Positions 16,242-59,263 of a stretch of DNA of 64,000 nt are shown here, in pieces. Made by a program: the position numbers and the translations under genes. Source of the stretch: Geosiphon pyriformis uo1 (lineage: Eukaryota > Fungi > Glomeromycota); contig JAAOMT010000660.1 in the NCBI GenBank assembly GCA_016748015.1, positions 201,875 to 265,874 on the forward strand, written 5' to 3'. Under the pieces are notes generated by a model that was not told the DNA's origin, did not search any database, and saw only the letters and a program-made list of their open reading frames with translations. The stretch's first letter is position 1; each line of letters starts with the position of its first letter.

Positions 16242-16386
16242 TATTGTCTTGTCTGGTCTAAGTGGCTAGCTACATATAATAAGTGTATGAGTCACTTTTA
16301 GTTTGAGTTACTTAGTTTGATTCTATGTATTAAATAGTGGTTGGATTTCATTTATTAATTGTATTAATAAAAAAAAATATGTTAAA

Positions 16387-18673: not shown

Positions 18674-19033
18674 TGTTATAGGTAATTATTTGAGGTGTTG
18701 AAACAAATAACAAATTCGTAACTTAGTGCTCAATAGCTAAAAATACTGGTAATTTCTGAAGGTTTTGAAGTTTCAAAATTTTGGTTGAGTTTTTTATATA
18801 ATAAACAAAGATTTAATTGATAGTTTCTTTTGTAATTTTTTTTTTTAGTGTAATGGCTAGTTTATTCTGACAGTTATGCTCTTTTAGTAAGCTATTCTTA
18901 AATTTTTATTATTGTTTTTAAGTTTTTTACCAGATTATTTTTGATATTAATTATTTAATGCTTAATTTCTTTAATTAACAAAAAAAATAAAATAAAATAA
19001 AATAAAAAAAAAAATAAAAAATTAATATTTTAT
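18674..19033 (-). mobile_element. Partial LTR (U5 end) of the family-B type, inverted, interrupted by element B
   Basis: Reverse complement of about 19500-19867 (tgttataggtaattatttgaggtgttgaaacaaataac...). Cut at 19033 where the element B 5' LTR begins. Confidence 0.85.
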
Positions 19034-19867
19034 TGTTATTTATAGAAATTAAAAATTATAATAAATAGATAAAATAGCCAATTAAAAATAAGCATAATAA
19101 AAAAAAATTCCAGAATTTTTTCCAAAAAATTACAGCATTTCAAAATTCCAGAATTTTAGGATTTCTGTCAAAAAAATTAAAAGATTTTAAGGAATCTTGT
19201 ATAACACAAATTATGTATATATAATAAAAGTATTAGAAGCAAAAAAAATATTTGAGATTCAAACAAAATAGTAGTTAGCAATAATTATCTATTCTATACT
19301 TTTTCTTTAAAAGATTGTTTTTTATAACTTAAAGTAAAATCACATTAATATTAATAAAATATCTAATTAATATTCAATTTATATTATCATTGTTTGATTA
19401 AGAATATTAATTACTTTTTCTATTATCAATATTTCATGTTAATAAAATCTAATACTTAACCATATTAGACCAATAGTTTTTGATTATGGCTATTGATAAA
19501 ATAACAAAATTTTTTTTTTCTTATTTTTTTTTATTTTATTTTATTTTATTTTTTTTATTTTTTTATTGTTTACTAATTAATTAAAGAAATTAAGTGCTGA
19601 GTATTTAATATCAAGAATAGTCTCATAAAAAACCTAAGAACAAGAGTAGAAAACTTAAGAATAGCTTACCAAAAGAACACAACTGTCAAAATAAACCAGC
19701 TATTAAACTAAAAAAAAAAATTCACAGAAAAAACTATTAATTAACTTTCTGTCTATTATACAAAAAAATCAACCAAAATCTTTAAAAATTACCAATATTT
19801 TCAGCTATTTTGTACCAAGTTATGGATTTGTTATTTGTTTTAACACCCCAAATAATCATCTGTAATA
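19034..19867 (+). repeat. 5' LTR of element B
   Basis: Runs TGTT...taata (decayed AACA). TATA at ~19215. The first ~400 bp match 29659-30021. Followed by ttTGGTGC (PBS). Confidence 0.88.
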
Positions 19868-22800
19868 TTTGGTGCTTTTTGTGAAATATAATCTAACAAA
19901 GAACTATTACTAACATTAACTATTTAGAAAAATAACAGAACAAAAAATCATAGAAAAAAATTATTTAAGATTTACAAAATCTTTATTTTAATATTACCAA
20001 ACTCATCTCAGACTAACAAATAACTATTAGCCAGCAAAATAAGCTTTCAATTTCTATATTAATGAAAAAATTAAATTCTACTTAGAAAATCAAAAAGATC
20101 CAAAAGCCATACTTAAAATTTTCTATAGTAAATTACTTCAAAACACTATGCTTTTACAAAATTATTTGTTTTGCTTCACTAATTACAAAGATAAATCAAA
20201 AAATTGAGAATTACACTTAGCAGAAATTTTTTATTATTTTTACAGACAAAAAAAAATTACAAATTCCAACAAAAACACCAATAAAATACAACTGTTTACT
20301 TAAAAAAAACCAAGAATTATTTTATCTATTTACTCATCATATCATTATATACCAAAAAGTACTATCCACATATTATCTGGATCTAAATCACCATTAATTA
20401 CAAAAACATCATTATTCAGAGTATTATTTTAAAATAATCAAGAGAAAGCCAAATTATTAGGAACCTATGGCAATTTTTTTGAAAGATTTAATAATATTAT
20501 CAAAACTTTGATTACTATTATTTTAACCAAATTTCGAATTTACCAGTTATTAAAAAAATATTAAATTAGAAAAAAAAAAATAGCAATCAGAAAAATAATA
20601 ATTAAAATCCAATTTTAATTAATCTGGAAATTATAATTTTAATTGTTTAAATTCAGCCAAATCCGAACAATTCAAACTCAGCTTCTATTTTTCCAAAAAA
20701 CTTATCTTTAATTATCCTAATTAATACACTACTAGTAATATTAATTGCTATTTAGCAACAATCACAACAACAGTAATTTGCACAAATAATTTATACACTA
20801 ATTACCAAATTAAAAAAATTCATTAATAAAAAAGACAACATTTAAACATGATTAAACAATATGGCAAAAGCCATTACAACCAATGAATAAGATGACACCA
20901 AAGTCTTACAAGCTATTTTTTACTTCTTATAAAACACAGTCAACTCATGGTATCAGAATTTTGTAAACAAACCTCAAGATTTTAACACATTCAAAACTGT
21001 ATTTTTACAATATTTCAGCAATAATAATAACATTAATTGTCTGTTAACTAGTTTATCACAATAAGTATGTCCAATGTATCTAAATACTCTCTAAAACACA
21101 ATTATATATGCCAAGAATTTTGAATTAACCAAATTTGATGCCAATTATATTCAAATCATAAATCTAGTAATAAATAGATCATTTAAATTAGATACCAAAT
21201 TAAAACAATTTGGCAAAACCATCAATTAGAAAATTAAGGGATATTTAACTAATAATTAAGCAATTTATTAACTTTCTTAATGTTGTAATAATTCAAAAAA
21301 CTCTAATTATTTCTAAAATCAATTATGTTTATTATTATCATTAACTAATTAACTGTAATAACAAAAAACATGTAATTATTATTATTGTAATAAACAAGAC
21401 CATCTAAAAGCAAATTGCTGCTCTAGATTTAATAACTAATAATTAGAAAATCAACATTAAAACTCCAATTACAGATTTCAAATTCAGAACTATGTCAACA
21501 ATTTGTTATTATAATTATACTTATATTAGCTATATTACTTCTAAATAATGCAATAATCTATATATATATCTTCAGTTTATTAGACTTTAACATTAGTAAT
21601 CTATTAACTATAGCTATAAGTAATTTATTAACTCTAACCAATTCAAACACCACCACAAAACTTAACTCAAATATCAACTAGAAACCAAAGACTGAAAATT
21701 ACTTATATACAACAAAATTGGAGATTGGCAATAATTATATACCAATTAATTCTTGGTTTCTTAAATTAGATATCAAGATTGTGCCCAAGAAATTTGAGAA
21801 GTAAGTATACTCAAATTCCAAAATTTTAAAACTATTTAAGTCTTTTGATTATCCCAAAAAATGCCCAATCTAACAACTTAAAACAGCCAAAACAACTACT
21901 TCTCAATAATATTCTATCAGCAATAATCATTAAAGATGAGTTACTTATAATTATCTTTCCTTTCAAATTAAAAAGATTTTTAATAATGCTTCTTTTTAAT
22001 AGAGCCACTCTTAATACCAAACTAATTACTGTCATGTATATTAATACCAAAGTTAATGACCAATTTATTAAGCTAATTTTTAATAGTAGATAGTAGACAG
22101 TATTATTATATGACAACTTATAAACCAATTAAAACACCAAGTTAATCAAACTACCAGTGCTAAAATTATTATAGCTAATAAAACAACAAAGATTTCTATT
22201 GGTAAAATTGATGATTTTTCTTTTAAAATCAATGATATTATTATGTTAATTAAAGTTCTAGTCATAAAAACTACATAATATCAAGCTTTTGTTAGTAATA
22301 ACTGGCTGTTTAAGACCAATACTGTACTTAACTGAATCATACAAAAGTTATAGCTTATTCAAAACAATTAGCATACTTGAATACTAGCTACTTGTAATTA
22401 CTTCAAAGCAACTCAATTACAGTTACTAATAGAATTCGAAAAAAAAAAAAACAAATCTATCTGAAAAGCTTATTAAGTCTTATAAACTAAAAATAATCAC
22501 AACAAGCTACTACTAATACTCTCTTAAAATGACAAAAAAAAAGAAAAAAAAGAGAATGAATCTTAAATTACTATCTCCACAGAAAAAACAAATAATAATT
22601 AATATGTTTTATACTCAATAAAATTAAGAAAAAAACCACTTTATATTTCTCTTAGATACATTAATTGTAAAAAAAGCTTTTTTTTATGAAAGCTTAGATC
22701 TTGTCAAAAAAAAACTACTAAACACATACTTACTATTATTGCAAACTGTATTATAAAAAACATTTTAGTTATTCAAAATAACAAGAAAAATAGAACAATA

Positions 22801-23053: not shown

Positions 23054-24863
23054 TGTTACAGGTAATTATTTGGGGTGTTAAAACAAATAACAAACTCATA
23101 ACTTGGTGCTGTTACCAGACGAAATTAGAGATATCATTGAGCATGAAACTATCTTATAATTCCTATCATTAATTAGCATATATTATTGTTTCAAATTATC
23201 ACTTATTACATTAGCAAAAATGTCCGAAATTATCATTTAATTAATAACCCAAATTGTACACAACACAAATGTAATCTAATTGCGATGATCAATCATGCAA
23301 TACCCCAAACTATGTAACATTCAAAAGTTCGCCAAAATTTATAGAAATTCGCCGAAATAATTGATAGTTTACCAAAATATTTAATAGTTCACAGAAATAA
23401 CTTGTAGTTCACCAAAATATATCTTTAGTTTAGTGAAATTGTAGAAAATAGCAAAGTTCAAGTTTATAAAATAGTGTTATAACAAGTTGTATAAAAAGAA
23501 GAGCTTTTCTCTTTGAGAAAATGTATCTTACTTTAGATTTATCACTTAGAACCATTCCTACACACACAAAAAGAAATAAATATCAAATAATTCAAAAAAC
23601 CAAATTCTTTAATTATTGCATTTGGAAAATCCTCAAAACCCAATTAAGGTTTTGAAATTGATTAGCTACCAATTTCAATAATTTGTTAGTGACTCCAGGC
23701 CTAGATTGAAACGTTTCCTTTGACAGAATTTCATTTCTTTTACATCTTTTTATTTTTTTTCTTTTATTTTCTTACTATAATCATTTGGGTAGCCTACAGA
23801 CAAAATTTCTGTAGAAGAGTTGACTTTCACAGCAAAGTAACTATACATTTTAGTGAGCTTTCAGACGAGCAATTCCTGAGAAAAAGTTGATGTTTACTAC
23901 AACGTAACTACATAAAGTAACTGGCATGGAATTGGCCATTCCACTTATAAGCCCAGCAATTCAAATTATAGGAGATAATTTGAAGATAAATTCAGTTACT
24001 GGAGGTTCAACCACATCCAGAAAACATGAATTCACAGCAAACAAGCATCGACAACATTTAAGAAAAGAGACCAAAAACCTCTGATAACAGTGCTTAATAG
24101 TTGATAATATTGGTATTTTCTGAAAATTTTGAAGTTTAAAAGTTTTGGTTGAGTTTTTTGTATAATAAATAAAGATTTAATTAATAGTTTCTTTTATAAA
24201 TTTTTTTTTTCAATATAATAGCCAGTTTATTTTAATAGTTATGCTTTTTTGGTAAATTATTCTTAAATTTTTACTCTTATTTTTAGGTCTTTTACCAGAC
24301 TATCTTTAACATTAAATACTTAGTACTTAATCTCTTTAATCAATTAGTAAACAACAAAAAAATGAAAAAAAATATGAAATTAGTATTCTGTCAATAACTA
24401 TGATCAAAAGCTATTAGTCTAGTATGGTTAAATATTAGATTTTATCAACATAAAATATTGATAAAGTGAAATGAATTAATATTTTTTTAATCAAGTAATA
24501 ATAATATGTATTTAAGGATAATAGATAATTTTATTAATATGAAAATAAATTCACTTTAAGTTATAGAAAACTATTTTTTGAAAAAAAGAGTATTTGTTCT
24601 AAATTAATATAAATTCTATTAAATTTTTCTGGAATTACATTTTTTGCTTTTAATATTTTTACTATATATATATAATTTATAGTATACAAAATTTTGCATT
24701 TTCTTAAGCAATATGTTCTATTTTCTCTGACAATATGTTTATTGTTGAGAAATATATTATAATTTTCTAATATTATATTCACTTACTAAGTTTTATTCTC
24801 CTATTGATCTATTTTTCTATCTGTTTTTCTTACTTTTTTCCTTGTATTTTTTTATAAATAATA
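23054..24863 (-). mobile_element. Solo LTR inserted antisense in the element B Cys-rich region; itself split by a family-C solo LTR
   Basis: Ends are tgttaca (23054) and taaataata (24863). The 4-bp TSD is TTGT (23050-23053) / TTAT (24864-24867, G>A). The host pol reading resumes after it. Confidence 0.8.
23110..24089 (+). mobile_element. Family-C solo LTR (980 bp)
   Basis: TGTTAC...ATAACA, flanked by a perfect 4-bp TSD GTGC (23106-23109, 24090-24093). Colinear with 44592-45568 and 49797-50775. Confidence 0.95.
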
Positions 24864-25289
24864 TTATCATCAAAAATAACTCATTAAAACTTGTTGAAAC
24901 TATTTTTATCTTAAATTCAGATATTTTTGTTGACATTCTAAGCAATTTAAAACAATTTCACAAATACTACCAAGATTTAGCACCTATTCAAAAAAAGCAA
25001 AAGCAGCATTTAAAACAATTAAATGCAAGATTCTATAAATATTGCTTAATTTTTAGTGATTTTGAATATTGTAATAATTGTGATTTTATCTACAATCTAC
25101 TATTGCACATAATTTATTTGATTTCTAAAAAAGAAAAACCAATTAGTAGTTGTATTTTGGAATCAAAATCAAAATTTAATTATGATTTAGACTTTAACAA
25201 TAACAACAACAATGGTTCTAATACTATTCACTATAACAACAACAATAATAATAATTTAAACTCTAATTACAACCCTAAACAATAACTTA

Positions 25290-25710
25290 AATAATTCAGT
25301 GATAATAATAAGAGTATTATGTTAGAATATACATATGATACCAATAGAAAATTTGATCTCAGATATCCAAAAAAAACAGCCATTTAATTAAAATTTTATT
25401 TACACATCAATATAAATCAGAAAATAATACTGGAAATTTCAGCAATGATAATTGTTTAATTAGCTTTTAGATTTAGTTTAATAAAAAAAGAGATTAATAT
25501 TAAAAGGAAAATAATTGATGCAGAATATATAAAAAATATTATTGCAATATTATAAAATAACTTAAAAAAAAATATATTATTAAACCAAATAAAAAAATAA
25601 CACAAACAATATTTCTGTCTTTAATTAAAATAGTTTAATTAATGTTAATAGAAACAAAAAAAGAGTTAGGAATTACAATAAAAGAGATAAATAGATTTGG
25701 ATTTACAAAT
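25290..25710 (+). pseudogene. dUTPase domain of element B
   Basis: Decayed motifs HDTNRKFDLRYP, LAFRFSL, IIDAEY, KITQTIFL and INRFGFT, colinear with the cleaner copies in A and C. Confidence 0.75.
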
Positions 25711-28700
25711 AAAATAGAAGTACAATTAATATAACAAAAAAAAACTATTAATAAAAAGAAATTATCTTTACCAATTAATCTATTTTTATTCTATTATATA
25801 ACTAGTATATATTAATTATAAAAAGGAAAGTAAAGGATTAACTTCAAATTTTTGAAATGGAACCAAATATTTGTAAGTCAGAAAAAATTGGTATTATCAA
25901 TCTTTATATATTAGCCAAGAACCATAAACACATTAAAATTCCAATATATAACATAACTGAAGATTCTATAGAAATACCAAATAAAACTATTATTAAATAC
26001 TTAAACATTAAAGTTGAAAGTTAACTACCAACAATCATTCTAGATTTTCTACAACTTTGCAAATATATGAATATTACATTACAAATAATTTACAGACAAA
26101 AAAAGTGTTATTTGCTATAACCAGAACAATTAAAACAAATAAACTTAAAAAATTTAGATCCACTTTAATATATGCAACTTAAGATGCTACTTAATAATTT
26201 TACTAATATCTTAATAAAAATAAATTTGACAGAATTAATATCATATAACATTAAATTAAAACTGAAGATATAATACCAATCAAACAAAAAACATACAGAA
26301 TACTACCTACCAATTATAAGATCATCTGACAAGAAATCAACCAAATATTAAACAATATATTAATTTAACTATTAATAAATTCATGTTCTTTACCAATAGT
26401 ACTTGTTCAAAAAAAGAATAAGATCTGCTTTTGTGTAGACTATTAAAACTCAACAGTATTATTTATGAAGCAGCTATCCAATTCCATAGATCCAAAAGTT
26501 ATTCAATACTTTTGAAGAGAAGAAATGGTTTTTAACATTAAACTTAGATAGTAGTTATTGGCAAGTAGTCATAAATTTAACCAATAAAAAAAAGACAGCA
26601 TTTACAATTAGAAAAAAAAAATTTGAATTTAACATTATGTTTTTTGGCTTAATCAATGTTTTAGCCACTTTTTAATAACTCATGAAAATTGTTTATACTG
26701 GATTACTATAAAAATTCACAGAAGTCTATTTAAATAACACCAATATATTCTTCAAAACATTTGATAATTATTTCTATCATCTCTAGTAAGTATTTAAAAT
26801 ATTAAAAAAAGCAAAGCTAAAGTTAAATGCCACTAAGTATTTCTTTGAAAAAACAAAACTCAACTTTTTGGGACATGTTGTAAGCAAAAACAGCATAAAA
26901 ACAAATTCAGACAAAATTGAAATAGTCAAGAACTTTTCAGTATCAACAAATTTTACAAAATTAAAAGCATTCTTAGAATTTACTAGATATTATTTCTGCT
27001 TTATTCAAAATTTCTCTAAACTGGCTCAACTATTTTACCAGTTCTAAGCAAAAAACATTAAATATAAATGAACTAAAACTCAATAAGAAGCTTTTAATAT
27101 CTTGAAAAAAAAGCTTATTTAAGCTCTAGTATTAATTTATTCAGATTACAGCAAACTATTTATCATTACTACTAATGTATTTGGCCAAGTATTAAAAACT
27201 GTATTGTCATAAAAAAGAGCCAATAAATGAAAACATCTAGTGATATATGCCAGCCAAAGTTTAAGTCTAACCGAAAAAAATTATAGAACTTTAATATTAG
27301 AACACTTAGCTATCTATTTGGCTATTATTAAATAAAAAAAATACTTGAATTAAAAGTTTGATATGTATACTAATCACAAGAATTAACATCAATCTAGAAA
27401 CAAAAATTTGGAAATAATTGTCATATAAGATAAAAAATAGAACTATTATTATTTAATTATATTGTATATTATAAAAAGAAAAAAAAAATAGAAATACTGA
27501 TGGCTTATTATAAATGAGACAAATCTAAAAACATTTCAACCCAAAAATATAATAAAAAATAAACACACAAAAATACTAAAAACTTCAATATTATATTAAT
27601 ACTTAACAGTTCAAGAAAAAATTATCTCAAAAAAAACAAAACAATATAAAACAACAATTAAAATATCTTATCACTTATCAAAATATACTATATTAGAAAA
27701 CCAAAAAAAATTCAAACAAGCCACTTAGAGTATTACAAAACCAAAGAAAAAAATAATACTGTTTAACATATACTTAAATTTAACAACAGAATATTTTCAT
27801 AAAAAAGCAACCATAAAAAAAACCAGAAAAAAATACTATTGGCTGTCTATGTATTCAAATATTATCTAATATGTTTAAAATTGGAATGCTTGTTAAAGAA
27901 AAGGAAGAACAAAACCCAGTAAACCACTAAAACCAATTAAAATAAAACAACTATTTAATCAAATTAAAATTAACTTAGTTAGATTATTAACAATAACCAA
28001 CAAAAGCAATCAATATATAACAGTAATCATGAACTATCTTACAAAATAGCCTAAAACAAAAGCAATTCAAAGAACAAATGCAAAATTTGTAGCCAAATTC
28101 ATATACCAAGATTTAATTTGTCAATATAGATGTTTAAAAAAATTGTTATTAGACCAGAAAACTTACTTTGTAAACAAAATATTAACAAAATTAAGTCAAA
28201 AATTTGGAATTAAGAAACTATTATTATTATTATATTATTTACAAACAAATGGCTTAATTGAAAAGTTCAACAGAACATTATGTAAAACAATAGCCAAGAT
28301 TAGCCAAAAAATTCAAAACAAATAAGATTTGTTTATATTATCAGTATTATTTATTTATCAGACAATAAAACAAGATACTACACAAACAATATTATTTAAA
28401 TTAGTCTATAGTAGAACAGCCACAATATCAATTAAGATAAATATTAATACATATCTAATTAAACTAATAATAAAAGTCAACTTTCAAGAAATATTGCTGA
28501 AAAAAACATATAACTTAATAAAAACTTTAAAAAACAAAAGACAAAGAGCAGCTAATAACATATAAAAGTTATAAGCAAAACAAAAAAAATGACATAATAA
28601 CCAATTATCAAATAAACCAGTTAAATTCAAAATTAAAGACAAAGTATTTTGATATTATACCAAAATGGAAAAACAATGGAGTGAAAAATTTGACCCCAAA

Positions 28701-35780: not shown

Positions 35781-36291
35781 TGTTACTCATAGAAATATAG
35801 GAAATATATTAGCATGATTATTAGCCAATCAGAAGTAGGCATAGTAAATATGGAATTCTAGGATTCTTCTCAGGAATTGCAAGATTCCAGGAATTTCAGG
35901 ATTCTTTGATGAGGAATTGCAGGATTTCAGGAATTTCAGGATTCCTTGATGAGGAATTACAGGATTCCAGAATTCCAGGATTCTTCTCAAAGGAATCACA
36001 GGATTCCAGGAATTCCAGAATTCCTGTTATGAAGAATTAAGGAATTGAGGAATTTCAATTATGTATATATAGCAGCAGGATTAGAAGCTGAAAAAACAGA
36101 CCTCTTAGTTTAGATTTAATCTAAGCAACTCTCCAAATCACAAGCATCTAATAAATAACTATTTGTTATCTCAAACCTATTTCTACTATTAACACTTCAT
36201 GTTAATAGTAATTAATACTTAACCACACTGGAACAATAACTCTTGATCATGGCTATTGATGGAATACTAACTTGCAAATCGCCTTGGCTTA

Positions 36292-36334
<43 letters not shown>

Positions 36335-36739
36335 CTTTTTTTGTCTTATTTGTATGGAGCAGCAACATAGTAAAATTGACTGTCTGAGAATAGACTTCGT
36401 AATAGCCTGGTAAAAAAAGGAAGCTCCCTCTAAGTTTTGGATATTAACATTATCTTGTTAGCTTACCAAAAAGGCAAAAAAACAATGCCAGACTCTAATG
36501 ACTGTGTTCATAAGCTCGGAAAAGAAAGCTCACATTTATGAAAAACATTGCAATTGACGAAAAACAAACTCTGTGCCTTATAACCAAAGAACTCAATGGG
36601 TAAAATTCACATCCAGAAATAGATCTTCAGAGATTGATAATCAAGACTAAGTCAACAGAATTATGTGGAAGATGCATCATCAATAATTGAGAGCACCAAA
36701 CATTACTATTTCCCATACTCACCAAGTTTATTCGTAACA
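35781..36739 (+). repeat. 5' LTR of element A
   Basis: TGTTAC...GTAACA. U3 has ggaattccaggattc repeats (35850-36056), TATA at ~36063, hairpins, and a T-tract at ~36292-36342. Confidence 0.92.
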
Positions 36740-36741
36740 TT

Positions 36742-36758
36742 TGGTACTCCCTATAAGA
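36742..36758 (+). promoter_or_regulatory. Primer-binding site, consensus TGGTGCTCYCTGTGA
   Basis: Lies 2 nt after the LTR end in all four 5' LTRs: 19870 (tggtgctttttgtga), 36742 (tggtactccctataa), 45571 (tggtgctctccc) and 63787 minus (tggtgctctctgtga). Confidence 0.85.
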
Positions 36759-39700: not shown

Positions 39701-42589
39701 AGTGAAACAACATGCCATGCCTTACATGTGGCAAAATCCTGCCAGATGAAGGACTCTGAAATGATGTGTCTGGCAGAGGAAGAACATGCAATGAGGCTTG
39801 TCAATACACCATATTAATCAATGATTAAGTACGAAAGGGAATCTTCATCGAGGATGTTTGGAAACGAACACTCAACAGGCTGGACAGTTATCCATACAAT
39901 GACCACAAAATCTGGAGAATGGCAAGCGCCAAGGCCGAAAACATCATGCCTGAAGAAATACGAGAAATCAAGGACAACCCTTGGATGCCCGAATATAATA
40001 GACCCGACTACCCCAAGGATAATTTCTTTACAGATGACCTAGATGCATTTCAGAACTAATATTAGGAATTGGTCTCGACTTGCAAAGAACAAGAGCAAAA
40101 GTTGGCCAATTTGAATACCAAACTGTGCGATCACTGTTTGATTCCCTGTCACTTTCAGTACTGCAACAAATGTGATTTCATGTTCAATCTGCCTCCAAGA
40201 ATACTGTTTCCAATCACCAAACTACCTGAGCCCAAAGAAGAGGTATTGATCACCAAGGACATGTCATTTCAAGATCCAACTGAAGATACCAAAACAGAAC
40301 AGTATCTCACATATTCCAACCTATTCAAAGAACTAGAGCTAAAATGGTACAATAACAACAAGAAAAGAATCTGCCCCAAAAGAGTGCATGACACCGATAC
40401 CAGTTTTGACCTACAATAACCCGGACAATCACTTATCATTATAGTTTCACATTCCTTCGTAAAAATAGATCTTAAAATAGTGTTAGTAATTTCTGTTAGT
40501 ACAATGGTACAAGTTGCCTCTCGATCTAGTTTAGCCAAAAAAAGAATCAACATAAAAAGAGGAATCATCGATGCCGGTTACACGGGAAACATCATCATGA
40601 TGCTACAAAACAATTTGGACAGACCCTACAAAATAGAATCACAAGAAAAAATTGTCTAAGTTATTTTCCTACCCCTAGTTAAAATACCCCAATTAACCCT
40701 AGTAACAACCCGAGAAGAGTTAGGTCTCATTGCCTGAGGAATCAACAGGTTTGGATTAAGTGGAAAAGGAAACGTACCAGTTAATTTCACAGAGGAAGAC
40801 AGTGACCAGGTAGAATTTATCAACACTGACACTATCATCTCCATTCCTTCATACCGACAATACATCCTCAAGGTGAATCAAAAAATCCAAGATCAAGCCC
40901 TGTTATTTGAAGCCAGTCCCAAAATCTGTTCTCTAGCCGATGTTGCTAATCTATACCTACTGGCCAAAGTGCATAAACACTTCAAAATCCTCATCCACAA
41001 CTCGACAGAAGATGTTATTGAAATCCCCGAAGGGACCCTCGTTAGTTCCATATTCACAAATATTCAGAGTTCTGAAAAACCTCAGTCCATTTCAGATTTT
41101 ACACAATTATTCTTATTCTGTGATATTACCTTACAAGTATAAAATTTGCCAAAAGAAAGTTACTTGTTTACACCAGAAGAGATTAATAAATTGAATTTAG
41201 GATATTTAAGTACTCTGCAACAAATGCAACTCAAAGTCTTTCTGAATCAGTATGCTGATGTCTTTGCCAGTGAAAATGAGTTCAGACGCACTGACATCGT
41301 AAAGCATCAGATTGATACGAGAGACACTCAACCAATTAAGCAATGAGCTTACCACATACTCCCATCTGGCGATAACCTAATTAAGCAAGAAGTACAACGG
41401 ATGCTTGATAATGGCCAAATCAAAGAATTGTTAAGTCCTTGGTTCTCGCCAGTAGTCTTAGTCACCAAGAAAAATGGAAAAGTGCAATTCTGCGGTAATT
41501 ATCAAAAACTAAATAGCGTCATGCAAGGAGATAGTTATCCCACTTCCCTCATTCAAGAAATTCTGAACAATCTAGGGAAAAAGAAATGGTTCTCATCATT
41601 AGATTTAGCAAGTGGTTACTGGCAAGTTGAAATGGACCCCAAAAACAAAAAAAAAACAGCATTTACCACTTGAGACAGAAACTTCGAGTTTAATGTAATG
41701 TCTTTTGGACTTTGTAATGCTCCTGCCACGTTTCAATGTCTGATGGATGTAGTATACAAAGAAATCCTTTGGAAATCAGTAGTAGTCTACTTAGATGACA
41801 CAAACGTGTTCTCTGAAACATTTAAAGACTATCTGTTCCACCTGCAATAAGTCTTCGAATGCCTTTGTAGTGCTGAATTGAAACTTAATCCCGAGAAGTG
41901 TTCTTTGGAAAAACTGAGTTAAAATTCCTAAAACATGTAATCGGCAAAGACGGAGTTAAACTTTATCCAGATAAAGTACAAAAAGTCAAGAATTTTCTAC
42001 CCCCAATCAACCTCAGAGAATTATAAGAATTTCTAGAATTGGCAGAATATTATCATTGATTTGTCAAAAGTTTCTTGAACATCACAAAACCACTCCATCA
42101 ATTGTTGTTCAAATACATACCGTACTTGTAGAAGGAAGATCAACAGAAAGCATTCAACTATTTCAAGCAGTGATTGATCACATCCCAATTCGGATTTACC
42201 CAGATTTCACTAAATGGTTCATTGTCACTACGGACGCCTCAAAAAATGCTCTAGAAGCAGTCTTATCACAGATAGGATTAGACAATAAAGAACACCTAGT
42301 TGCCTACGCTACTTGTAACACTAGCCCAATAGAAAAAAATTACAGCACAACTGATCTGGAATGTCTCGCTATTTATTGGGCCATACAGACTTAGAAACAT
42401 TACCTCAGTTAACCATTTGACCTATATACTGACCACAAAGGACTTATTTGGTTACTCAACAATCCACAACTAGAAAAAAAATATGCAAGATGAAGTACTT
42501 ATCTGCAACAATTCTTATTCAAAGTCCATTACAAGGAAGAATCCAAGAACACCAATGCCAACAGTTTGTCGAGAATACTACAAACCTAA
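36796..42589 (+). pseudogene. Element A polyprotein: gag - protease - Cys-rich domain - dUTPase - spacer - RT - RNase H
   Basis: ORF fragments at 36802, 37360, 37606, 38905, 39502, 40069, 40873, 41146 and 41401 all lie in one frame. Motifs: LEKFSGE (capsid), CYYCQKPGHITCDC, LILNSGSAGSII (D>N), LDLASGYWQV, YLDD (41788-41799), IVTTDAS, NYSTTDLECLAI, NANSLSR. Stop at 42587-42589; frameshifts near 41900-42200. Confidence 0.9.
40340..40764 (+). pseudogene. dUTPase domain of element A
   Basis: HDTDTSFDL, QVASRSSLA, GIIDAGYTGNI, EKIV*VIFL and GINRFGLSG correspond to trimeric dUTPase motifs 1-5. Confidence 0.9.
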
Positions 42590-42599
42590 TCCCAGACCC

Positions 42600-43966
42600 A
42601 TGGACACACTTACTTATCAATGACTACATCAGTACCTATTGACACTACGTTTCAAGGAGATATTATCTCAACAAGAACAGAGTACCATACAAAAACAAGC
42701 CTGAAATTATTTTATTCAAGACAACCAACTATATCAACAAGAATGCCAAAACCACCCCAACTCACAACGACTAATCAAGGACAGTGAAAAAGAAACTATA
42801 CTATATAGCATACACTTAGATCTGACTGCAGGACACTTTAACAAAAACACTACCCTCAAAAAAACACTAAACTTATACTATTGGCCAACAATATACAAAG
42901 ACATTTTCGAATATATGCTCAATTGTGATACATGCCAGCAAAGAGAAGGAGCAAGATCAACAGAACCACTTCAATTCATTCTAGTTGAAAATCCATTTGA
43001 TAGAATCAGGATCGATTTGGTTGGATCTTTTTCAATTACATCTCAAGGAAATTGCTATATTGCTATAGCCATAGATTATTTTACAAAATGGCCAGAAGCC
43101 AAAGCAATCCAAGTGGCCAATGCCAAAACAGTAGCCAAATTTGTGCATCAAGACCTAATTTGCTAACATAGATGTCTGAAAGAATTATTATCTGATCAGG
43201 GAACACACTTCGCTAATAATATGCTGACTGAACTAAGCCAATAGTTTGGAATAAAGAGACCCTTATCGTTACCATACCACCCACAAATGAACGGACTGGT
43301 AGAATGATTTAACAGAACACTATGGAAGCACTAGCAAAAATAAGTCATGAAAACAGACAAGAATGTGACTTATTTATACCTTCTGTACTCTTTGCATACC
43401 AAACATTGAAACAAAATACAACTCAGTTCACACCATTCGAACTAGTCTATGGAAGAAAAGCTATGTTACTGATTGAACAAGTGATATTGTCATACCCAAC
43501 AGAAACAATCAATGAAGAGAATTTTGAGACTACCTTATACCAAAAAACGTACCAGCTAATGCAAATGTTGGAAAACAATTGAAGAACAGCAGCTGACAAT
43601 ATTAGTCATGCTCAAGAATGACAAAAAGAAAGACATAATAAACACCTATCAGAACAACCAATGGAATTCAAAATTAGAGACCAAGTACTGTTACATTGTA
43701 CAAAAGCTGAAAAACAGTAGAGTAGAAAGTTTGACTCAAAGTGGGACGGTCCATTCCACATACACAAAGCATTAGAAAATGGAGCTTACAAATTACGATT
43801 GGAAGACAAGATTTTAAAAAAAGTAGCACATAGAAATTGGTTAAAAATTTATCATGTAAAACAAGAATCATTGTCATCAGTATCTCAACTAGGAACACAA
43901 ATTTCATTAATCAGACCAGAAGATATACCATGAGATCTGGAACCAATCATCATCATCAAAATGTAG
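42600..43966 (+). pseudogene. Element A integrase (HHCC, DDE, GPF/Y; no chromodomain), apparently a separate ORF
   Basis: ATG at 42600 (MDTLTYQ). Contains HLDLTAGHF...NCDTCQ, RIDLVG, IDYFTKWPEA, LLSDQGTHF, YHPQMNGLVE, FTPFELVYGR, KWDGPFHI, and ends EPIIIIKM*. Confidence 0.9.
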
Positions 43967-44591
43967 ACAATGGGCAGCAAATTAAATTGGAGAATTCAAA
44001 TATATATAGCATCCGAAAAGCAGTAAGAAACAATAGAAATTTCAACATGGACCTTTCAGATCAAATTTTAAAATTATTTAAACAATTATTTGAAACAATT
44101 CAAAAATTGACATCTCAAATAGAAATAACAATTGATAAAAAAAAAATACAGTACAAAGATAAAAGCAGGAGAGGGGAGGATGAGAGTTTAATTAGAACTA
44201 AACATTTCTTCCCCTATCCATCACCCAAAAGACAATGTTGAAGGAAAAATTGCCTTTGGGCAGGAGGTGAAAAAGAAGAAGACAAAGAACAAGAAAAAGG
44301 TTACAAAAGAAGATACTTGGTCTCCAAGCTCGAAAAAATAAAAAAAGCTTTAGCTTGTAAGACCGAACTCCTCAAAACAGATAAGTGGACACCTGACAAT
44401 ACCCAGAAATGAAAAGAAAGACTTCCTTCAGCTTATTGGTTCTACAAAATTGGAGAACAGCTTGACTTGAAAACACCATATGAAGACCTTAGGCAGAAAA
44501 CATTTAACAAAGAAGCAATACAACAAGTAGAAAAATTTGTAAAGAAAAACAACCTAACCCTATATTACAAAGAAGCATACATACTATACGC

Positions 44592-45568
44592 TGTTATCAG
44601 ACAAAATTAGAGATATTATATAGCATAAAATTATCTTATAAATTCTATCATTAATTAGCATATATTATCATTTCAAATTATCACTTAATATATTAGCAAA
44701 ATGTCCAAAATTATCATTTAATTAATAACCCAATTTGTATATAACACAAATGTAACCTAATTGCAATGATCAATTATGTAATACCCCGAACTATGTAACA
44801 TTCAAAAAGTTCACCAAAATTTGAAGAAATTTGCCGAAATAATTGATAATTTACCAAAATATCTAATAGTTCGCAGAAATAACTTGTAGTTTGCCGAAAT
44901 GTATCTTTAGTTCAGTGAAATTGTAGAAAAGATCAAAGTTCAAGTTTATAGAATAGTGTTACAACAAGTTGTATAAAAGAAAAGCTTCTCTTTTTGAGAA
45001 AATGTATTTTACTTTAGATTTATCACTTAGAATCATTCCTACACACACAAAAGAGAAATAAATATCAAACAAATTCAAAAAACCAAATTCTTTAATTATT
45101 GCACTTGAAAAATTCTCAAAACCCAACCAACATTCTGAAATTGATTAGCTACCAATTTCAATAAACTGTTAGTAACTCTAGGCCTGGATCGAAAACATTT
45201 CTCTTGACAGAATTCTATTTCTTTTACATTTTTTTTATTTTCTTTTTATTTTCTTATTATAATCATTAAGATAGCCTACAGACGAGATTTCTGTAGAAGA
45301 GTTGACTTTTACAGCAAAGTAACTACACATTTTAGTGAGCTTCCAGATGAGCAATTCTTGAGAAAGAGTTGACATTTACTACAATGTAACTATACAAAGT
45401 AACTGGCATGAAATTGCCCATTCCACTTATAAGCCCAGCAATTCAAATTATAGGAGATAATTTGAAGATAAATTCAGTACTGAAGATTCAACCACATCCA
45501 GAAAATGTGAATTCACAGCAAACAAGCATCGACAATATTTAAGAAGAGACCAAAAACCTCCAGTAACA
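44592..45568 (+). repeat. 5' LTR of element C
   Basis: TGTTA...GTAACA; colinear with 49797-50775 and 23110-24089. Confidence 0.95.
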
Positions 45569-45615
45569 ATTGGTGCTCTCCCACAGAAATAACACAACAA
45601 CAACAAAAATTCAAA

Positions 45616-48600
45616 ATAGCGACCACACCAGATGCAACAACTCTAGAGTATTACCAGTCAATTTACACCCACTGCAAGCAAAGGTTCAACATTCCAGACG
45701 GAATTGAAGTTGTCAAGAAATCAGTATACCAATACATTGAAAACCACATCAACAATTATCTTTTTGGAAATTACAATATCTCAGAAATTAGAAGCAACCT
45801 TTACAATAATTTAGTACACTATTCACAATTGGAAACTAAAGATCTTAACAGTGAAACACTTGCCACTTACTTTCATAAACTTAATTTTAACATTATCAAA
45901 TACTGTGAAGAAACATATCCAGTGCAGTCTCAATATTCTATTGATTTTGAATTGGAAACAGAAACAAGCAACAAAGGCAAAAACAAATTGAAGCAATACT
46001 CAAATACCACCCCAAATACTCCAACACTACCAAAAACAACTGCCAAATATTTACAAACACCTGAACAAGGAACCAGTTCAAAACTTCCACTTACTATCAC
46101 ACCTTTTCCAGCTTCACTTGTACAAGCACAAACATCTAATTCACCCTTGAATCAATTTGCAAGACCAGAAAATTTTACATCACTCAGAAGTCCCACCAGA
46201 CAACAAGAATCTCTTCAAACTAGTTCCAATCTCCTTGACTTTCTAGCTAAAAATCAAAGTGAACACTCTGAGACAGCAGCGAACAAAGAAAACAAACCAG
46301 AAATATCTAAAGAAGAATCAATAGACAACAAAAACAAAGAAGACGAAATGACAACATATATCGCAAAAATCCCTGAATTTAATGGAGAAGACATTGAGAC
46401 CAGTCCCCAAGAATGGCTCAACCAAATTACTAAAGTGGGAGATGCAAATAGATGAAATGCTGCCAGAATGTTAAGAACAATTCCCTACTTTCTTAAAGGA
46501 ACAACAGGAGAATGGTTTGAAAACTTGGCCACCTCATTCAATGATTAGAACGCTTTCAAAGCAGCCTTCCTTGAACAGTTCACCGACAATAATACCTCTA
46601 TCACCCTTTGCAATTGTTTTCGAAATATCAAACAAGAACCCTCTGAATCTGTTATAACTTATATTGGAAAATTCAACAAACTTCTCAGACAAATTTGCCA
46701 ACTCAAGACAAATGATTATTATTTCAATGCTCAAATCTTAGATCAATTTATCACTGGTCTAAAAGATAAATTAATTAAAAAGGTTTGCTTACATGCATCA
46801 GAAGATTTAAACTCTGCCATAGAGCATGTGAAAAGATACGAAATGGCCATGGAAAAGGCCAATTACACAAAACTTGTAAATTTGGCAATTAGAGAAACCA
46901 GCTCAGCAGCTGAGAAAAAAATTGACCAACTGACAAAGAAGGTTGAAAACTATTTTACCAATCAACAACAACAGCAACCCCAAAGATATCAACCACCCCA
47001 AAGACGAAATCAAAATAACTTTACACCACTTTCCAATAAGCAGCCTCAGAATTGCCATTACTGTAGAATCTCTGGCCACTGGAAACGAGATTGCAGAAAG
47101 CTACAATGAGACCAACAAAATAGAAGTAATCAATGTTATTCTCCACTACAGCAATCTTATTATCAACCACCACCACCAGCTTACTATCTACCAAGATTCC
47201 AATACCAAAATAACTATTATCAGCCTGCCCCACAGCCAATCCAACAGCAATACCAACAACCACCCACACAACATTATCAAGTATCTGCTCGAAAACTGAT
47301 TACACAAAATCAATTCACACCACAAAACCAATACCAAGTAAACAACAATAGAATCAGTTTGAACAACCAATTGGTTCTCCAAAATTCCACTCAACCAAGA
47401 CCCAATCACTACGACACTCAATTCAGTTATTAAACAATGCTAGAAGAACAAGATTTTTACCATACTGCACTCTTGGAAGGTAGAGCTGCAGCACAACAAC
47501 AAAACTCTTTCTATACTCTCACCACAATCCCACCAGCCAGAATTGCTGAAAACGCTAACCTTTTAGATATATTTCTTTTTGAGTTCAAAGCAAATAAGTT
47601 ACTATTCCTGCTTAGCAATGCAGCTACCAATAAACAAAAAGCAATCACAGCTATGTACACTGAAGCAGAAGTTGAAGGAAAAACAATTCGCTTGATCCTA
47701 AACAGTGGATCCACCGGAAGCATTATCACCTACCAGTTAATACAACAGTTGAAGAGAAATGTCGACCGACCAGCTCAAACAGTAATCGTCACTGCCAATG
47801 ACATGAAAAAGACCCCAGTAGGAGAAATTGACAATTTTCTGTTCACTCTTGATAGAATCACCATTCCAGTCAAAGTTCTTGTAATAGACGCACCCCAGTA
47901 CCAAGCTCTCGTCGGAAATGATTGACTTCAAAAAGCCAATGCTAATTTGAATTGGGAAACACAAGAGTTAACAATCTCCTACCAAGAACAACATGCCCAG
48001 GTACCTGCCACTTATAGTACATTCAACAAATGCTCTGAAAAAGCCCCGGCTTTTGAATTTGAACTGGAAGAGAAAAAACCCCTCATTGAAACATTCATGG
48101 CTCTTGGATCAACATCCAACTGGGCCGATGAAACAGAACAAGAACATTTTACCCCACACTCTGAACCTGAAACCTCTGGATGGAATATTTTTTACTCAAA
48201 ACCCGAACCAAGAAAACAACGCCCTTATATTCCCCTTAAATGTAAGAACTGCCACAAGAAACTATCATCAATGGGAGCCTGCATTTCACCTGAAGAAGAA
48301 TATGAAAATCATACTTGTTATTACTGCAAGACTTGCCACAGAAAATAATGGGGCCATCTAATAAAAAGGAGCGGAAAATGGGACAATACCCCTTGTTTGA
48401 CTTGTGAAGATATACTACTGGAAGAATACAATTGGATTGATGTAGCCATGAGAGGAGGAGTCTGTGATCAGACCTGCTAATATGTTTTATCAATTTCAGA
48501 AAAAGTAAAAAGAAGAACACTCTTTAATGCAGCATACAACAGTGCTTTCAACAAACTTTATCACTACTCTCATGATGCCCAGATGATTTTTGACCTAGCA

Positions 48601-49540
48601 ATGGCATTAATTAATAGAGCTATCAAAGAAAATGTTCATCAAATGAAGGAAGCAGAATACATTGAATACACCATGAAATTAACTGGATTTAATTACGAAG
48701 ACAAAGTAGAAATCTACCACCAAATTGCAAGTCACACCTACCCAACCCAAAAAGCTCAAATTCAACGATTAGAGCAAATAAACATTAGGCTATGTGAAGA
48801 ATGCATTATGCCTTGTGATGAACAGTAGTGTCCTGAATGCTACACTTTTAGTATTCCCTTGCACAGCAAAAATGATGAGAACAAAATTGAATTTGGAGAA
48901 CCTGTAGCAACAGAAGAAATTGAAACAACACCTATCTATCTTATCAAAAATCAGCCTGTCTTACAACTTAAATACTTTAACAACAATGGACAAGGAATAA
49001 AACCCAAAAAAGCACACGAAATTGATGCTGGATATGACCTAAGATATCCAGGCAAGGATACTCTTGTTCTCAAACCCAAATCTCTCACAAAAATCAATCT
49101 CAAAATTGCACTCAAAATCCCACTAGGAGCAATGGTTCAAATCGCCTCCCGGTCCTCTCTGGCAAGCAAAGAAATTAATGTCAGAGGATAAATAATTGAT
49201 GTTGGATATACTGGAGACATTACAGTGATACTTCAAAACAAAACTAACAAACCATTCAAGATCGAACATGCTGAAAAAATTGCCCAAGCTATTTACCTAC
49301 CCTTAATCAACATTTCAGGTTTGCAACTAGTCAATCAAAGAGAACAATTAGGAAAAAGTGATAGAGGAACCCAAGGTTTTGGTTCAACTGGATGATTTAC
49401 AGTTCCAGTTAATATAGCTCTTAACACACAGAATGAATCCCACCAGATCCTCAGACTCCCACAACCAATTACCATCTCACTCTTTGGAGAACATCCAAAA
49501 ATCTACACCTGCCCAAAGCCAACAACTACACAACAAATTC
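45616..49540 (+). pseudogene. Element C polyprotein: gag - protease - Cys-rich domain - dUTPase (truncated after it)
   Basis: Fragments at 45829, 46828, 47437, 47947, 48583 and 48859 are all in one frame. Motifs: IAKIPEFNGE, CHYCRISGHWKRDC, LILNSGSTGSII, YQALVGND, CKNCHKKL...YYCKTC. Confidence 0.9.
48958..49392 (+). pseudogene. dUTPase domain of element C (cleanest copy)
   Basis: AHEIDAGYDLRYP, QIASRSSLA, G*IIDVGYTGDI, EKIAQAIYL and DRGTQGFGSTG: all five motifs, with one premature stop at 49189-49191. Confidence 0.95.
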
Positions 49541-49796
49541 AAGACAACAGCTGGACCAACAAACAGTCGCTACAAGCTCAAAGCTGTTCTTAGACTTTAT
49601 GACCTATTCCACACCTGTGAAAATGTCCTACAAAACCCAATTTTACGACCTTTGAAGATTCAATACATTGGAAAACTCACAGAACTGAAATTTCAACAAT
49701 TTTCAGACCAAATTTCTTCAATAATTTTGGATTACTATCTGGAAATTACAGACAGTACTTGGACTTTGATGGAGCTCAGTCTTGAGGAGGAGGTTA

Positions 49797-50775
49797 TGTT
49801 ACCAGACAAAATTAGAGATATTATGTAACATGAAATTATTTTATAAATCCTATCATTAATTAGCATATATTATCATTTCAAATTATCACTTAATATATTA
49901 GCAAAATGTCTGAAATTATCATTTAATTAATAACCCAATTTGTACATAACACAAATGTAACCTAATTGCGATGATCAATCATGCAATACCCCGAACTATA
50001 TAATATTCAAAAAGTTCGCCAAAATTTGAAAAAATTCGCCAAAATAATTGATAGTTCACCAAAATATCTAATAGTTCACAGAAATAACTTGTAGTTTGCC
50101 GAAATATATCTTTAGTTCAGTGAAATTGTAGAAAAGATCAAAGTTCAAGTTCATAGAATAGTGTTACAACAAGTTGTATAAAAGAAGAGCTTCTCTCTAC
50201 GAGAAAATATATCTTATTTTAGATTTATCACTTAGAATCATTCCTACACACACAAAAGAGAAATAAATATCAAACAAATTTGAAAGACCAAATTCTTTAA
50301 TTATTGCACTTGAAAAATCCTCAAAATCCAACCAACGTTCTAAAATTGATTAGCTACCAATTTCAATAAACTGTTAGTGACTCCAGGCCTGGATCAAAAA
50401 TGTTTCCCTTAACAGAATTCTATTTTTTTTACATTTCTTTTATTTTCTTTTTATTTTCTTATTATAATCATTAAAGTAGCCTACAGACGAGATTTCTGTA
50501 GAAGAGTTGACTTTCACAGCAAAGTAACTACACATTTTAGTGAGCTTTCAGATAAGCAATTCCTGGGAAAGAGTTGACGTTTACTACAACATAACTATAC
50601 AAAGTAACTGGCACAAAATTGGCCATTCTACTTATAAGTCCAGCAGTTCAAATTATAGGAGATAATTTAAAGATAAATTCAGTACTGGAGGTTCAATCAC
50701 ATCCAAAAAACATGAATTTACAACAAACAGGCATCAACAACATTCAAAAAAAGAGATCAAAAACCTCTAGTAACA
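49797..50775 (+). repeat. 3' LTR of element C
   Basis: TGTTAC...GTAACA following the PPT. Confidence 0.95.
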
Positions 50776-50984
50776 ATGCCATCTTTCAACATTGCCCAAA
50801 TGTACTACTAAATAGATCTATGAAAACCATAACAGTTAACAACATAGGACAAATAACTAATCAACAGTTCAAAAACCTACAAAAGGCAATACTCAAGGCA
50901 ACAATCGAACATTACACAAATGAAGCCATGATAACAGATACATACGGTTTTGCAGGAGCTCAATTTTAAAAAAGAGAGAGATAA

Positions 50985-52160
<1,176 letters not shown>

Positions 52161-54078
52161 CTGAGAATGACACAACAAAGCTGGAGATTAGCAATAGTAG
52201 CCTATTAACCAATCTCTAATTCATCCAACCAGCCATCAGGATTGTGACAGTGGAATTCAGGAATTAGGTACACCCAAAACCCGAATTCTTAACACTATTT
52301 AAGTCTTCTGGTTATCTCAGAAAATGCTTCATCCAACAACTGGGAACCCAACCAAAACAAATTACTTACCAGCAACATATCTTCAGCCACTGTAACCAAC
52401 AATGAATCACTAGCAGCAATTTTTTCATTTGAATTCAAAGAACTATTACAAATACCATTGTTTAATAAAGCTGTACTCAAAAAAAACCCATTATTACTAT
52501 GTACACTGATGCTAAAGTTGATGGTTAGACCATAAAACTGATCTTAGATAGTGGTTCAGCAGACAGCATCATCACATAACAACTTATGAACCAATTAAGT
52601 CACCAAGTTGATCAAGCTGCCAGCACAAGGATAGTTACAGCTGATAGAGCCACCAAGACTCCAATTGGTAAAATAAATAACTTACCCATTGAAATTAATG
52701 GCGTCATTACTCCTATTAAAGTCTTGATAATAGAAGCAACACAATACCAGGCACTAGTTGGCAATGATTGGTTATCCAAAACTAATGTCATGCTTAATTG
52801 GACCACACAAGAGCTCTAACTCAGTATAAATGATCAGCACACACATATATCAGCCACATGTGGCCACTTTTAAACAAACACAGCAATCACACTCCTAATA
52901 GAATTTGAAAAAAAAAGAAAAAAACCTACTTGGAAAGCCTATCAAATTTTATGGGCTAACATTAATTACAACAAACTACCACTAATACCATTATGGAATG
53001 ACAATAGAAAAGAGAAAGAAAGAAGAAAAACTTACCAAAAATACTGACCAAACATGATAGACTGACAACAACAGTACTAAGCTAATACTAACCTGGAAGT
53101 AGGAAGAGAATACCAAGAGAAAAAGAAAAGAGAAGAAAAAAGAGCTAACACCAACCATCACCACTTATATTTTATACATCTATACCCTACTATTATTATC
53201 TAACTATTGCCAACCAAAACTGGTATGCATTGATTGTGGCAAGAAATTGTTGTCAATAGGTATATGCTGTAGTGATGATAAGAAATACTCTATGGCAACC
53301 AAATTCTACTGCTGTCCATACATCCTAGAATGCTTTGGAAGACCAAAGAGGCAAGAAAAATAGGACAACAAACCTTGTCTCACTTGTAAAGAAATTTTAT
53401 TAGATAAAAGAATGTGAAACAACATTCCTGAACAAGGAGAAACCTGTAACAAATCATGTCAATACACAATTCTAATCAGTGACTGGATAAGAAAAGAGAT
53501 TTCCATAAAAGCTGTCTAGAGAAGAGCAGTAAAATATCTGAACAGTTGTCCACATAATAATAATGAAATCTGGTAAATGGCACTCGCCAAAATTGAAAAA
53601 ACATCATCAAAAGAAATAAGAATAATTAAAAACAATCTACCAGACCCATAAAACTCAACTGGGGCCCAAATTCAGATATTATACTAGAACTTATGAATTC
53701 AGAACAATTCCACAAGCATTACCAAAAATTAACACTCACTTGAAAAGAACAGAAGCAATGATTGAAAAAAATAAACACACAATTATGTGATCATTGTTTG
53801 ATTTTCTGTGACTTCCAATATTGTAATGAGTGTGACCTCATTTACAATTTACCACCATACATAATCTACACAATTCTAGAAAAAAAGAAACCAATTAATA
53901 GCTGCACATCAGAACTGGAATCAACTTTCAATCTCAATTCAAATTTCAACAATAATGATGACAAAAACAACAGTTTTAGCTTTATACAAATTGGCAACCA
54001 CAACAATAATTCAAATTCTGATTCAAATCCAAAACAATATATTACTCTTTCTGACCTCACCAAAAAACAGAAATTGAA

Positions 54079-54498
54079 ATGGTTCAGTGATAATAATAAA
54101 GGTATTATGCCAGAATGTGCACATAATACTAATGCCAGATTTAATCTGAAATATCTGAGAAAAAATGCCATTAAATTGAAACCACATTCACACATCTGTA
54201 TTAATCTCAAAATAGCATTAGAAATCTCAGCAACAACAATGGTTTAATTAGCATCTAAGAGTAGGTGAACAAAAAAAGAAATCAACATCAGAGAAGGAAT
54301 AATTGACACAGGATATGTAAGAAATATCATTGTAATATTACAAAATAACTTAGAAAAAACCTATATTATAAAGCCAAATAAAAAGATAGCACAGGCAATA
54401 TTTCTGTCTCTGGTTAAAATAGCTCAATTAGTACTAGTGAGAAACAAAAAAAAATTAGAGATTACAGCTAAAGGGATACAGAGATTCGGATCCATAGG
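54079..54498 (+). pseudogene. dUTPase domain of element E
   Basis: AHNTNARFNLKY, LASKSR, GIIDTGYVRNI, KIAQAIFL, KGIQRFGSIG. Confidence 0.85.
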
Positions 54499-58427: not shown

Positions 58428-59263
58428 TATTACTTATAAAAAAAACAGATATAGAAAAATAGTAGACCAATAAGGAAGTAATAGTTAGCACATGAGCATA
58501 TTGTTCAGCAATATGGAGCAATATTAGAAAATTAGGGCATATTGCTTAGCAATGTGAGCATTGCTCAAAAAATTATAACACATTGCTTAAGAATGTGAGT
58601 GATCTCATAAAACATAAATTAGGTATATATAGCAGTAGCATTAGAAGCAGAAAAGACAGACCTCTCAATTTAGATTTAATCTAAGCAACCTTCTACACCA
58701 CAAATATCAATAAATAATTATTTATTATCTTAATCTACTCTCTATTATCAACACTTCATGTTGATAGTAATTGATACTTAACTATATTGGAACAATAGCT
58801 CTTGATCATGGCTATTAACGAAATACTAACATTTATTGTCTTGGCTTATTTTTTTATTTTTTTTTCTTTTGTTGTTATTTCTTGTTGTGTACTAATTGAT
58901 TAAAAGATTAAAGTGCTGAGTTACTAATATCAGGATATAGCACTGGTAAAAGACCCAGGAATAAGAATAGACACTCAGATTTGAGAATAGCTTACCAGGA
59001 AATTGTCAGCCATCATGCCAAAAAAAAAATTAATGGAATTGTGATTTTAGGAAGCAATAGACAACAACTACTTAACCTGTGAGTTAACACTTGAAACACT
59101 ATTGAAAAAAAAAACCACATTGGAATCTCTATTCATTATATAAAAGATTTCATCAAAACTTTCAAATACAAACAACCTTCAGAAACCAACATTATTATAT
59201 CAATTGAATACCAAGTTATGAGTTTGTTATTTGCTTTGAGACCCCAAATAATTATCTGTAATA
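58428..59263 (+). repeat. 3' LTR of element E
   Basis: Runs tattac (decayed TGTTAC)...tgtaata. Palindromic gcatattgc/gcaatatg U3 repeats, TATA at ~58624, hairpins and a T-tract. Confidence 0.85.

Follow-up and report, generated by a model that had tools for sequence, protein, structure and literature searches.

Same-position LTR hairpins with lineage-specific palindromic loops as a likely RNA-pairing element in two retrotransposon lineages of Geosiphon pyriformis

We found that two distantly related retrotransposon lineages of a fungus have, at matching places in their LTRs, a hairpin that likely lets the RNA pair with its own kind for packaging. The window, a stretch of 64,000 nt, contains five copies with a TGATCA loop (A type) and three with a TAGCTA loop (C type), and the hairpins are real, though most copies are decayed. 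Covariation between the two lineages, a U-G pair that forms on the sense strand only, retention of the hairpin as an island of identity in one LTR (50985) and its invariance in C LTRs together argue for a leader RNA hairpin that is probably under selection. On balance, we lean towards dimerisation of genomic RNA through this hairpin, which would lie in the 5' leader, probably in U5, and form a nucleocapsid-chaperoned extended duplex. Two genomic RNAs would meet loop to loop via UGAUCA (A) or UAGCUA (C), and, because the loops are weak and lack the flanking purines of HIV, their conversion into a 22-bp extended duplex would probably depend on the zinc-knuckle nucleocapsid of Gag. Pairing is predicted of A with A and of C with C, with no A-C pairing, and co-packaging and recombination would be biased toward elements of the same loop.

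The window has 30% G+C and is depleted of CpG. Host-like genes occupy its left end, and it also contains a nested cluster of LTR elements and LINEs. An integrase fragment was 70-72% and 53-57% identical to Geosiphon pyriformis proteins and ~40% identical to Cetraspora, which points to a Glomeromycotina host, likely Geosiphon or something close to it. The LTRs of the elements are of the TG..CA type and 0.83-1.18 kb long. PBS- and PPT-like sites, target duplications of 4 bp, a CCHC knuckle in Gag and the gene order gag-protease-dUTPase-RT-RNase H-integrase are also present, as in Ty3/gypsy (Table 1). The dUTPase between protease and RT (48829-49420, 40333-40830, 54071-54565, 59563-60057 on the minus strand, 25286-25764) is common to all these Ty3/gypsy lineages of the window and almost absent in the relatives that we fetched. 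The C element gave no match to RT, RNase H or integrase; it may represent a non-autonomous family, and its LTR type is highly repeated (3193 contigs in DNA run X1). Extra coding-like sequence lies between integrase and polypurine tract at 43834-44590 and 50780-50960 (no Pfam match in the one fragment scanned), and 2.3 kb at 16380-18660 with ~13-16% G+C and extreme loss of C/G is possibly a fully decayed element.

Table 1. Hairpins, LTRs and associated features, in window coordinates
Feature	Position	Strand	Remark
A-type hairpin (anchor), loop CT-TGATCA-T	36234..36258	+	one G>A gives an A-C mismatch, stem broken
A-type hairpin	19471..19495	+	palindrome decayed to TGATTA
A-type hairpin	24392..24416	-	four decay changes
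A-type hairpin variant, pair 5 probably C-G instead of A-U	51584..51608	+	identity island behind unrelated upstream sequence
A-type hairpin	58793..58817	+	least decayed A copy, terminal mismatch
C-type hairpin, loop AT-TAGCTA-C	23653..23677	+	intact
C-type hairpin	45136..45160	+	intact; AATAAA overlaps last base; no variant of at least 4% in DNA run X1
C-type hairpin	50341..50365	+	one G>A
A-type 5' LTR, TG..CA	35781..36739	+	TATA 36064, TTAG motif 36105, AATAAA 36150, T-tract ~36290-36342
Primer-binding-site-like sequence	36742..36752	+	
A-type 5' LTR	19034..19867	+	
A-type LTR	23056..24774	-	ends approximate; split by C solo LTR
A-type 3' LTR	50985..52160	+	behind polypurine tract; upstream 600 nt unrelated to other LTRs
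A-type 3' LTR	58430..59263	+	behind polypurine tract
C-type solo LTR	23110..24089	+	4-bp target duplication GTGC
C-type 5' LTR	44592..45568	+	TATA 44972, TTAGATT 45014, AATAAA 45057, T-tract from ~45216, PBS-like 45571-45582
C internal region	45569..49796	+	broken gag, protease, dUTPase
C-type 3' LTR	49797..50775	+	

The initial annotation had listed the eight hairpins, and the motif was present at every one of these positions. The sequence it quoted for the A type is a consensus that none of the five A copies matches exactly, while its C sequence is exact in two of the three C copies and differs by a single G>A from the third (50341). In four A copies (19471, 36234, 58793 and 24392 on the minus strand), all nine deviations from the consensus are C>T or G>A, a pattern that fits decay after insertion in a window with a CpG observed/expected ratio of 0.34. 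The fifth copy, at 51584, reads CAATCGC..GCAATTG as reported and departs from the consensus at three positions. The proposed history of one compensatory pair change followed by CpG decay fits this pattern and is plausible, judging from the C-A mismatch at a CpG. The closing U-G pair is present in 4/5 A copies. A nine-nucleotide loop with a hexamer palindrome in the 2+6+1 register is found in the majority A sequence and in two of the three C copies; an A-form kissing loop is favoured when more of the unpaired bases lie 5' of the palindrome.

The C LTRs had been described as unrelated to the A LTRs, which was not borne out, as both have the layout TATA, TTAGATT, AATAAA, hairpin and T-tract. Two A LTRs and all three C LTRs have TTAG(A/T)TT at +41 to +46 from TATA, AATAAA at +85/86 and the hairpin at +164 to +170, followed by the T-tract. 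The reported distance of about 170 nt from TATA thus held for the C and two A LTRs (164-170 nt) but not for LTR 19034 (255 nt) or LTR 50985 (~268 nt). Two remaining A LTRs are without AATAAA at the shared offset; LTR 50985 has one 83 nt upstream of its hairpin, though its upstream part aligns to nothing else. The C protease and dUTPase are 38-53% identical to the copies of other window elements, and the A and C hairpins have 2-3/10 identity per block. By position, distant homology of the A and C LTRs is probable. In a decayed C-like LTR at 9102-9570 (z 19.7), the alignment ends near the expected start of the hairpin, and no alignment was obtained for a TAGCTA at ~16402 (z 0.1-0.3). The U3 of each A-type LTR holds different short tandem-repeat arrays (35850-36045, 51035-51240, 58490-58600), and LTR 19034 is inserted next to the 3' base of the hairpin position in another LTR (18676-19033, minus strand).

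The hairpin lies downstream of TATA and an initiator-like motif, as judged by sequence, and ~370-550 nt upstream of the LTR end. We infer a transcription start near TATA+42, which would place the hairpin ~125 nt into the RNA. Among 12 related metagenome LTRs, whose TATA boxes were picked by hand, 11 have AATAAA within 140 nt after TATA (at 59-118 nt in nine of those 11), and a YYAG(A/T)T motif occurs 16-35 nt after TATA in 7/12. AATAAA is a conserved poly(A) motif in animal Metaviridae and in retroviral LTRs, according to the accessible part of PMC3601003, and the one at +85 probably serves as the poly(A) signal here. With a poly(A) signal there and a short R, the hairpin would fall in U5 and hence be present once per genome, at the 5' end. 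Alternatively, it may lie in R: the second AATAAA of the C LTRs abuts the hairpin, and module junctions occur at the T-tract behind it. The initial annotation had held that a position upstream of the transcription start would speak against dimerisation; this argument is invalid because the 3' end of genomic RNA also includes U3. Since U5 pairs with the PBS, we also considered self-priming of the Tf1 type, with a start site close to the LTR end. It was set aside as less likely, because relatives likewise have TATA followed by AATAAA and the first bases of the PBS are TGG, the pattern of tRNA priming.

Other RNA structure was seen around the hairpin. In all lineages, U5 pairs with the LTR end and PBS (36688-36752, 19810-19878, 45545-45580, 63780-63850 on the minus strand) in a stem that resembles U5-IR and would make the primer site inaccessible, and several metagenome relatives have similar terminal hairpins. 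A second and stronger hairpin (11 bp, CTTCA loop, -9.3 kcal/mol) lies ~50 nt upstream of the A hairpin at 36184-36210 and 58743-58769. These two copies differ by a T-A/C-G pair; the hairpin is decayed in 19421, and none was seen in 50985 or C. Rfam models run against 44000-60000 of the window gave no match beyond one sub-threshold purD hit outside the LTRs.

Given its place in the LTR, the hairpin could instead be an intramolecular RNA signal for 3'-end processing, termination, RT pausing or strand transfer, or a Gag-binding site, with an incidental loop palindrome. We consider this unlikely, while noting that in every LTR checked the hairpin sits between AATAAA and T-tract, that the second AATAAA overlaps its last base in two C copies, that LTR modules join at the T-tract just downstream, and that stem-loops explain residual conservation in long R regions in the available text of PMC3601003. 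However, an intramolecular role leaves unexplained why the hexamer of both lineages stays palindromic and in the 2+6+1 register although two of its pairs are changed on both sides, and the second AATAAA is absent from A LTRs.

When the A and C hairpins are compared as orthologues, 6/8 stem pairs and 2/3 intermolecular loop pairs are changed on both sides; the 8-bp stem and 2+6+1 loop are retained, and no pair is broken at the majority level. This count is partly circular because the hairpins were chosen by shape, and it covers only two lineages. Symmetric changes would also preserve a two-fold DNA site, and the 25-mer is one insertion and one substitution short of a perfect 24-bp palindrome. 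A DNA palindrome bound by a dimeric protein, as a downstream promoter or silencing element, would moreover suit the fixed distance behind TATA in a promoter-bearing LTR. We regard such a site as improbable, since A and C have shape rather than sequence in common, the inner and outer dyads are half a base out of phase in both lineages, and the T-G pair is a mismatch in DNA.

The chance level of the geometry was estimated from shuffled LTRs. For each LTR, 1500 shuffles gave a strict 2+6+1 hairpin (8 bp, at most one G-U) 4-14 times, a relaxed one 141-221 times and any of 12 loop geometries 43-96 times. Within the window, 20 of the 27 relaxed matches are unrelated AT-rich noise. A single decayed copy is thus unremarkable on its own. 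Within 10 nt of the observed offset, a strict hairpin appeared in none of the 4000 shuffles made for each of two LTRs; relaxed hairpins appeared there 8 and 10 times per 4000. The same offset with the same geometry in A and C therefore rarely arises by chance, and position is the non-circular evidence.

Further observations bear on selection. In LTR 50985, the hairpin matches other A hairpins at 18-21 of 25 nt, and the 600 nt upstream, taken in 50-nt pieces, resemble the other A LTRs no more than background (z at most 3). The elements that keep the A hairpin have fragments with 56% identity in RT, 47% in RNase H and 57% in integrase, values that are underestimates given the decayed copies. In C LTRs from the 3193 contigs of DNA run X1, variants of at least 4% occur at 0/25 hairpin positions versus 36/182 flanking positions (Fisher p 0.01, post hoc). 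The block 45129-45173 has no such variant, with word depth highest on the hairpin; a second invariant block lies at 45067-45106, and 37 of 183 windows were without a variant. The depth-weighted variant share under-counts rare variants in conserved stretches, and X1 is one sample, possibly the source of the window; runs X2 and X3, with 18 and 5 records on the C LTR, were left out of the count, including one X2 contig that covers the C hairpin but whose run type is a guess. The C invariance in X1 is therefore supportive rather than decisive. Independent origin of a neutral inverted repeat in each lineage, followed by spread along with LTR modules, is improbable given the positional coincidence, the retained island in LTR 50985 and the C invariance, even though relaxed 2+6+1 hairpins occur in ~10-15% of shuffled LTRs, only two lineages are involved, the geometry was chosen after seeing it and A-type LTRs swap modules.

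If the hairpin is a dimerisation site, its energetics bear on the type. The predicted fold is worth -7.0 kcal/mol for the majority A sequence and -5.0 kcal/mol for C. In leader context the stem was predicted at 0.8 or above in 3/7 copies (in one of these in 2/3 folds) and at 0 in the anchor copy 36234. Cofolding gained ~12 kcal/mol for A-A, ~10 for C-C and 0 to 0.9 for A-C, and in the cofolded dimer an extended duplex of 22 bp contains two internal loops of 2x1; such a gain is expected of any palindromic-loop hairpin, which lowers the weight of self-cofolding. The hexamers are AU-rich, with two G/C among six bases, and their duplexes are weak (-5.0 and -5.1 kcal/mol versus -7.9 and -10.9 for HIV and -7.7 for Ty3 PAL6). 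Pyrimidines predominate in the loop flanks (C/U, U and U/C for A; A, U and C for C), with purines at 0/3 positions in A and 1/3 in C. HIV, in contrast, has conserved purine flanks and GC-rich hexamers. HIV SL1 also lies downstream of the PBS, whereas the window hairpin is inside the LTR. In the likeness to HIV-1 SL1, both have a short stem and a nine-nucleotide loop with a hexamer palindrome and three flanking bases (PMC4066764, in part), and an extended duplex is predicted. The accessible text of the same paper states that the HIV-1 DIS needs its three flanking purines and that A272C abolishes the long-lived kissing complex. By analogy, the hairpin would work like a DIS and yet lacks two defining HIV-type features, the flanking purines and the GC-rich palindrome. 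Of the proposal of a leader RNA hairpin with a self-complementary loop, selection on the hairpin is supported; the mostly missing purines and the AU-rich hexamers weaken the case for a kissing loop strictly of the HIV-DIS type.

An HIV-type kissing complex that forms unaided by protein is doubtful, and a Gag-chaperoned duplex as in Ty1 would fit better. Ty1 SL1 (PAL1-PAL2) is an AU-rich 5' UTR hairpin of a fungal LTR retrotransposon with a Gag-induced extended duplex, but Ty1 belongs to Ty1/copia, has its palindromes in the stem around a UCU loop, and its initial kissing step was not confirmed (PMC6844567, available sections). Ty3 DS/PAL6 is closer by class (Ty3/gypsy), a hexamer palindrome at a hairpin apex that is required for dimerisation in vitro; it differs in being GC-rich and in gag, and the accessible text describes no lineage-specific loop swap (PMC11381356). 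There, only one of six 5' palindromes gave a dimer signal, and UAGCUA, the C hexamer, was not that one, a real caution for a dimerisation reading of the C type. ALV L3, MMTV pal II and MPMV Pal SL are likewise hexamer-palindrome hairpins that go from kissing loop to extended duplex (PMC5874298, in part), but in retroviral leaders rather than lineage-swapped LTR elements. As far as the cited texts are accessible, palindromic dimer sites are known from retroviruses (PMC5874298, PMC516450) and from Ty1 and Ty3 (PMC6844567, PMC11381356, PMC4974528), and palindrome-based partner choice from HIV-1, where variant palindromes bias co-packaging and recombination (heterozygous particles ~45% versus 20%; PMC3187697). 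An LTR-borne 2+6+1 hairpin with lineage-specific loops appears to be new here: searches of open-access full texts found no report of one in a retrotransposon and none of dimer signals in Glomeromycotina elements, and the main text of PMC11952901, as available, is without the word 'dimer'.

The hairpin is not general to the clade and is so far limited to the long-LTR dUTPase lineages of the window. An integrase alignment fetched 80 metagenome, 1 viral-contig and 7 genome-contig loci; the best were 41-46% identical to the window integrase, and none had a clear dUTPase. The expectation that other families would carry palindromic-loop hairpins failed for distant relatives, with 0/13 TATA-to-leader regions of related elements having one (best geometry per centre); these regions came from 15 PBS candidates, of which two, both in L085, were dropped as doubtful. 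The 85 kb downstream of 61 related integrases showed no enrichment (stem 6: 3 observed versus 2.9 expected; 8 shuffles), and a 7-bp 2+6+1 hairpin was found in one of the 86 loci scanned (L020); L001, L088 and L089 lay outside these two scans. The L020 hairpin (5322-5344), with an HIV-like AA-UGCGCA-A loop, was rejected as it is upstream of TATA-like sites and within chance (0.25 expected, 8 shuffles). A similar purine-flanked UGCGCA loop in L061 (2960-2982) has three G-U pairs in its stem; it too does not exceed chance and was not counted as support. Viral contigs gave no match to the exact C hairpin, and integrase scans of them yielded one distant locus each.

The A-type LTRs swap modules. 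LTRs 35781 and 58430 have 273 nt in common (82%), from TATA to T-tract, with different U5s and pol DNA that is 66-67% identical. LTRs 35781 and 50985 have only U5 in common (451 nt, 88%), and the 35781/50985 element has no matching target duplication. The other U5 is common to 19034, the minus-strand LTR at 24.7 kb and 58430. Over their whole length, the three C LTRs show 89-92% identity to one another, with no A module in any of them. This mosaic pattern fits what co-packaging through a shared loop would give; there are only three C copies, divergence alone could block exchange, and recombination at the DNA level also makes mosaics. The initial annotation's family compatibility code, which we liken to mating types, is a tentative possibility that rests on two lineages: elements with UGAUCA would co-package and swap LTR modules, and the UAGCUA lineage would be recombinationally isolated. 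If so, UGAUCA sharers would exchange modules even with pol proteins ~55% identical, and a four-base loop change would be a speciation step for a transposon family, readable from genome sequence. A hairpin of constant shape but changing palindrome would offer a 25-nt handle, with loop swaps to probe partner choice in vitro. LTR elements make up 41.2% in G. pyriformis (PMC11952901, available text), and this abundance permits a direct test of whether mosaics follow loop identity. In related short-LTR elements (L014, L025, L029, L049, L067, L083), a U5 stem ~40-80 nt before the LTR end has a TCCCTG motif on its 3' side; its flanks covary by eye, which makes it a candidate conserved packaging or priming element.
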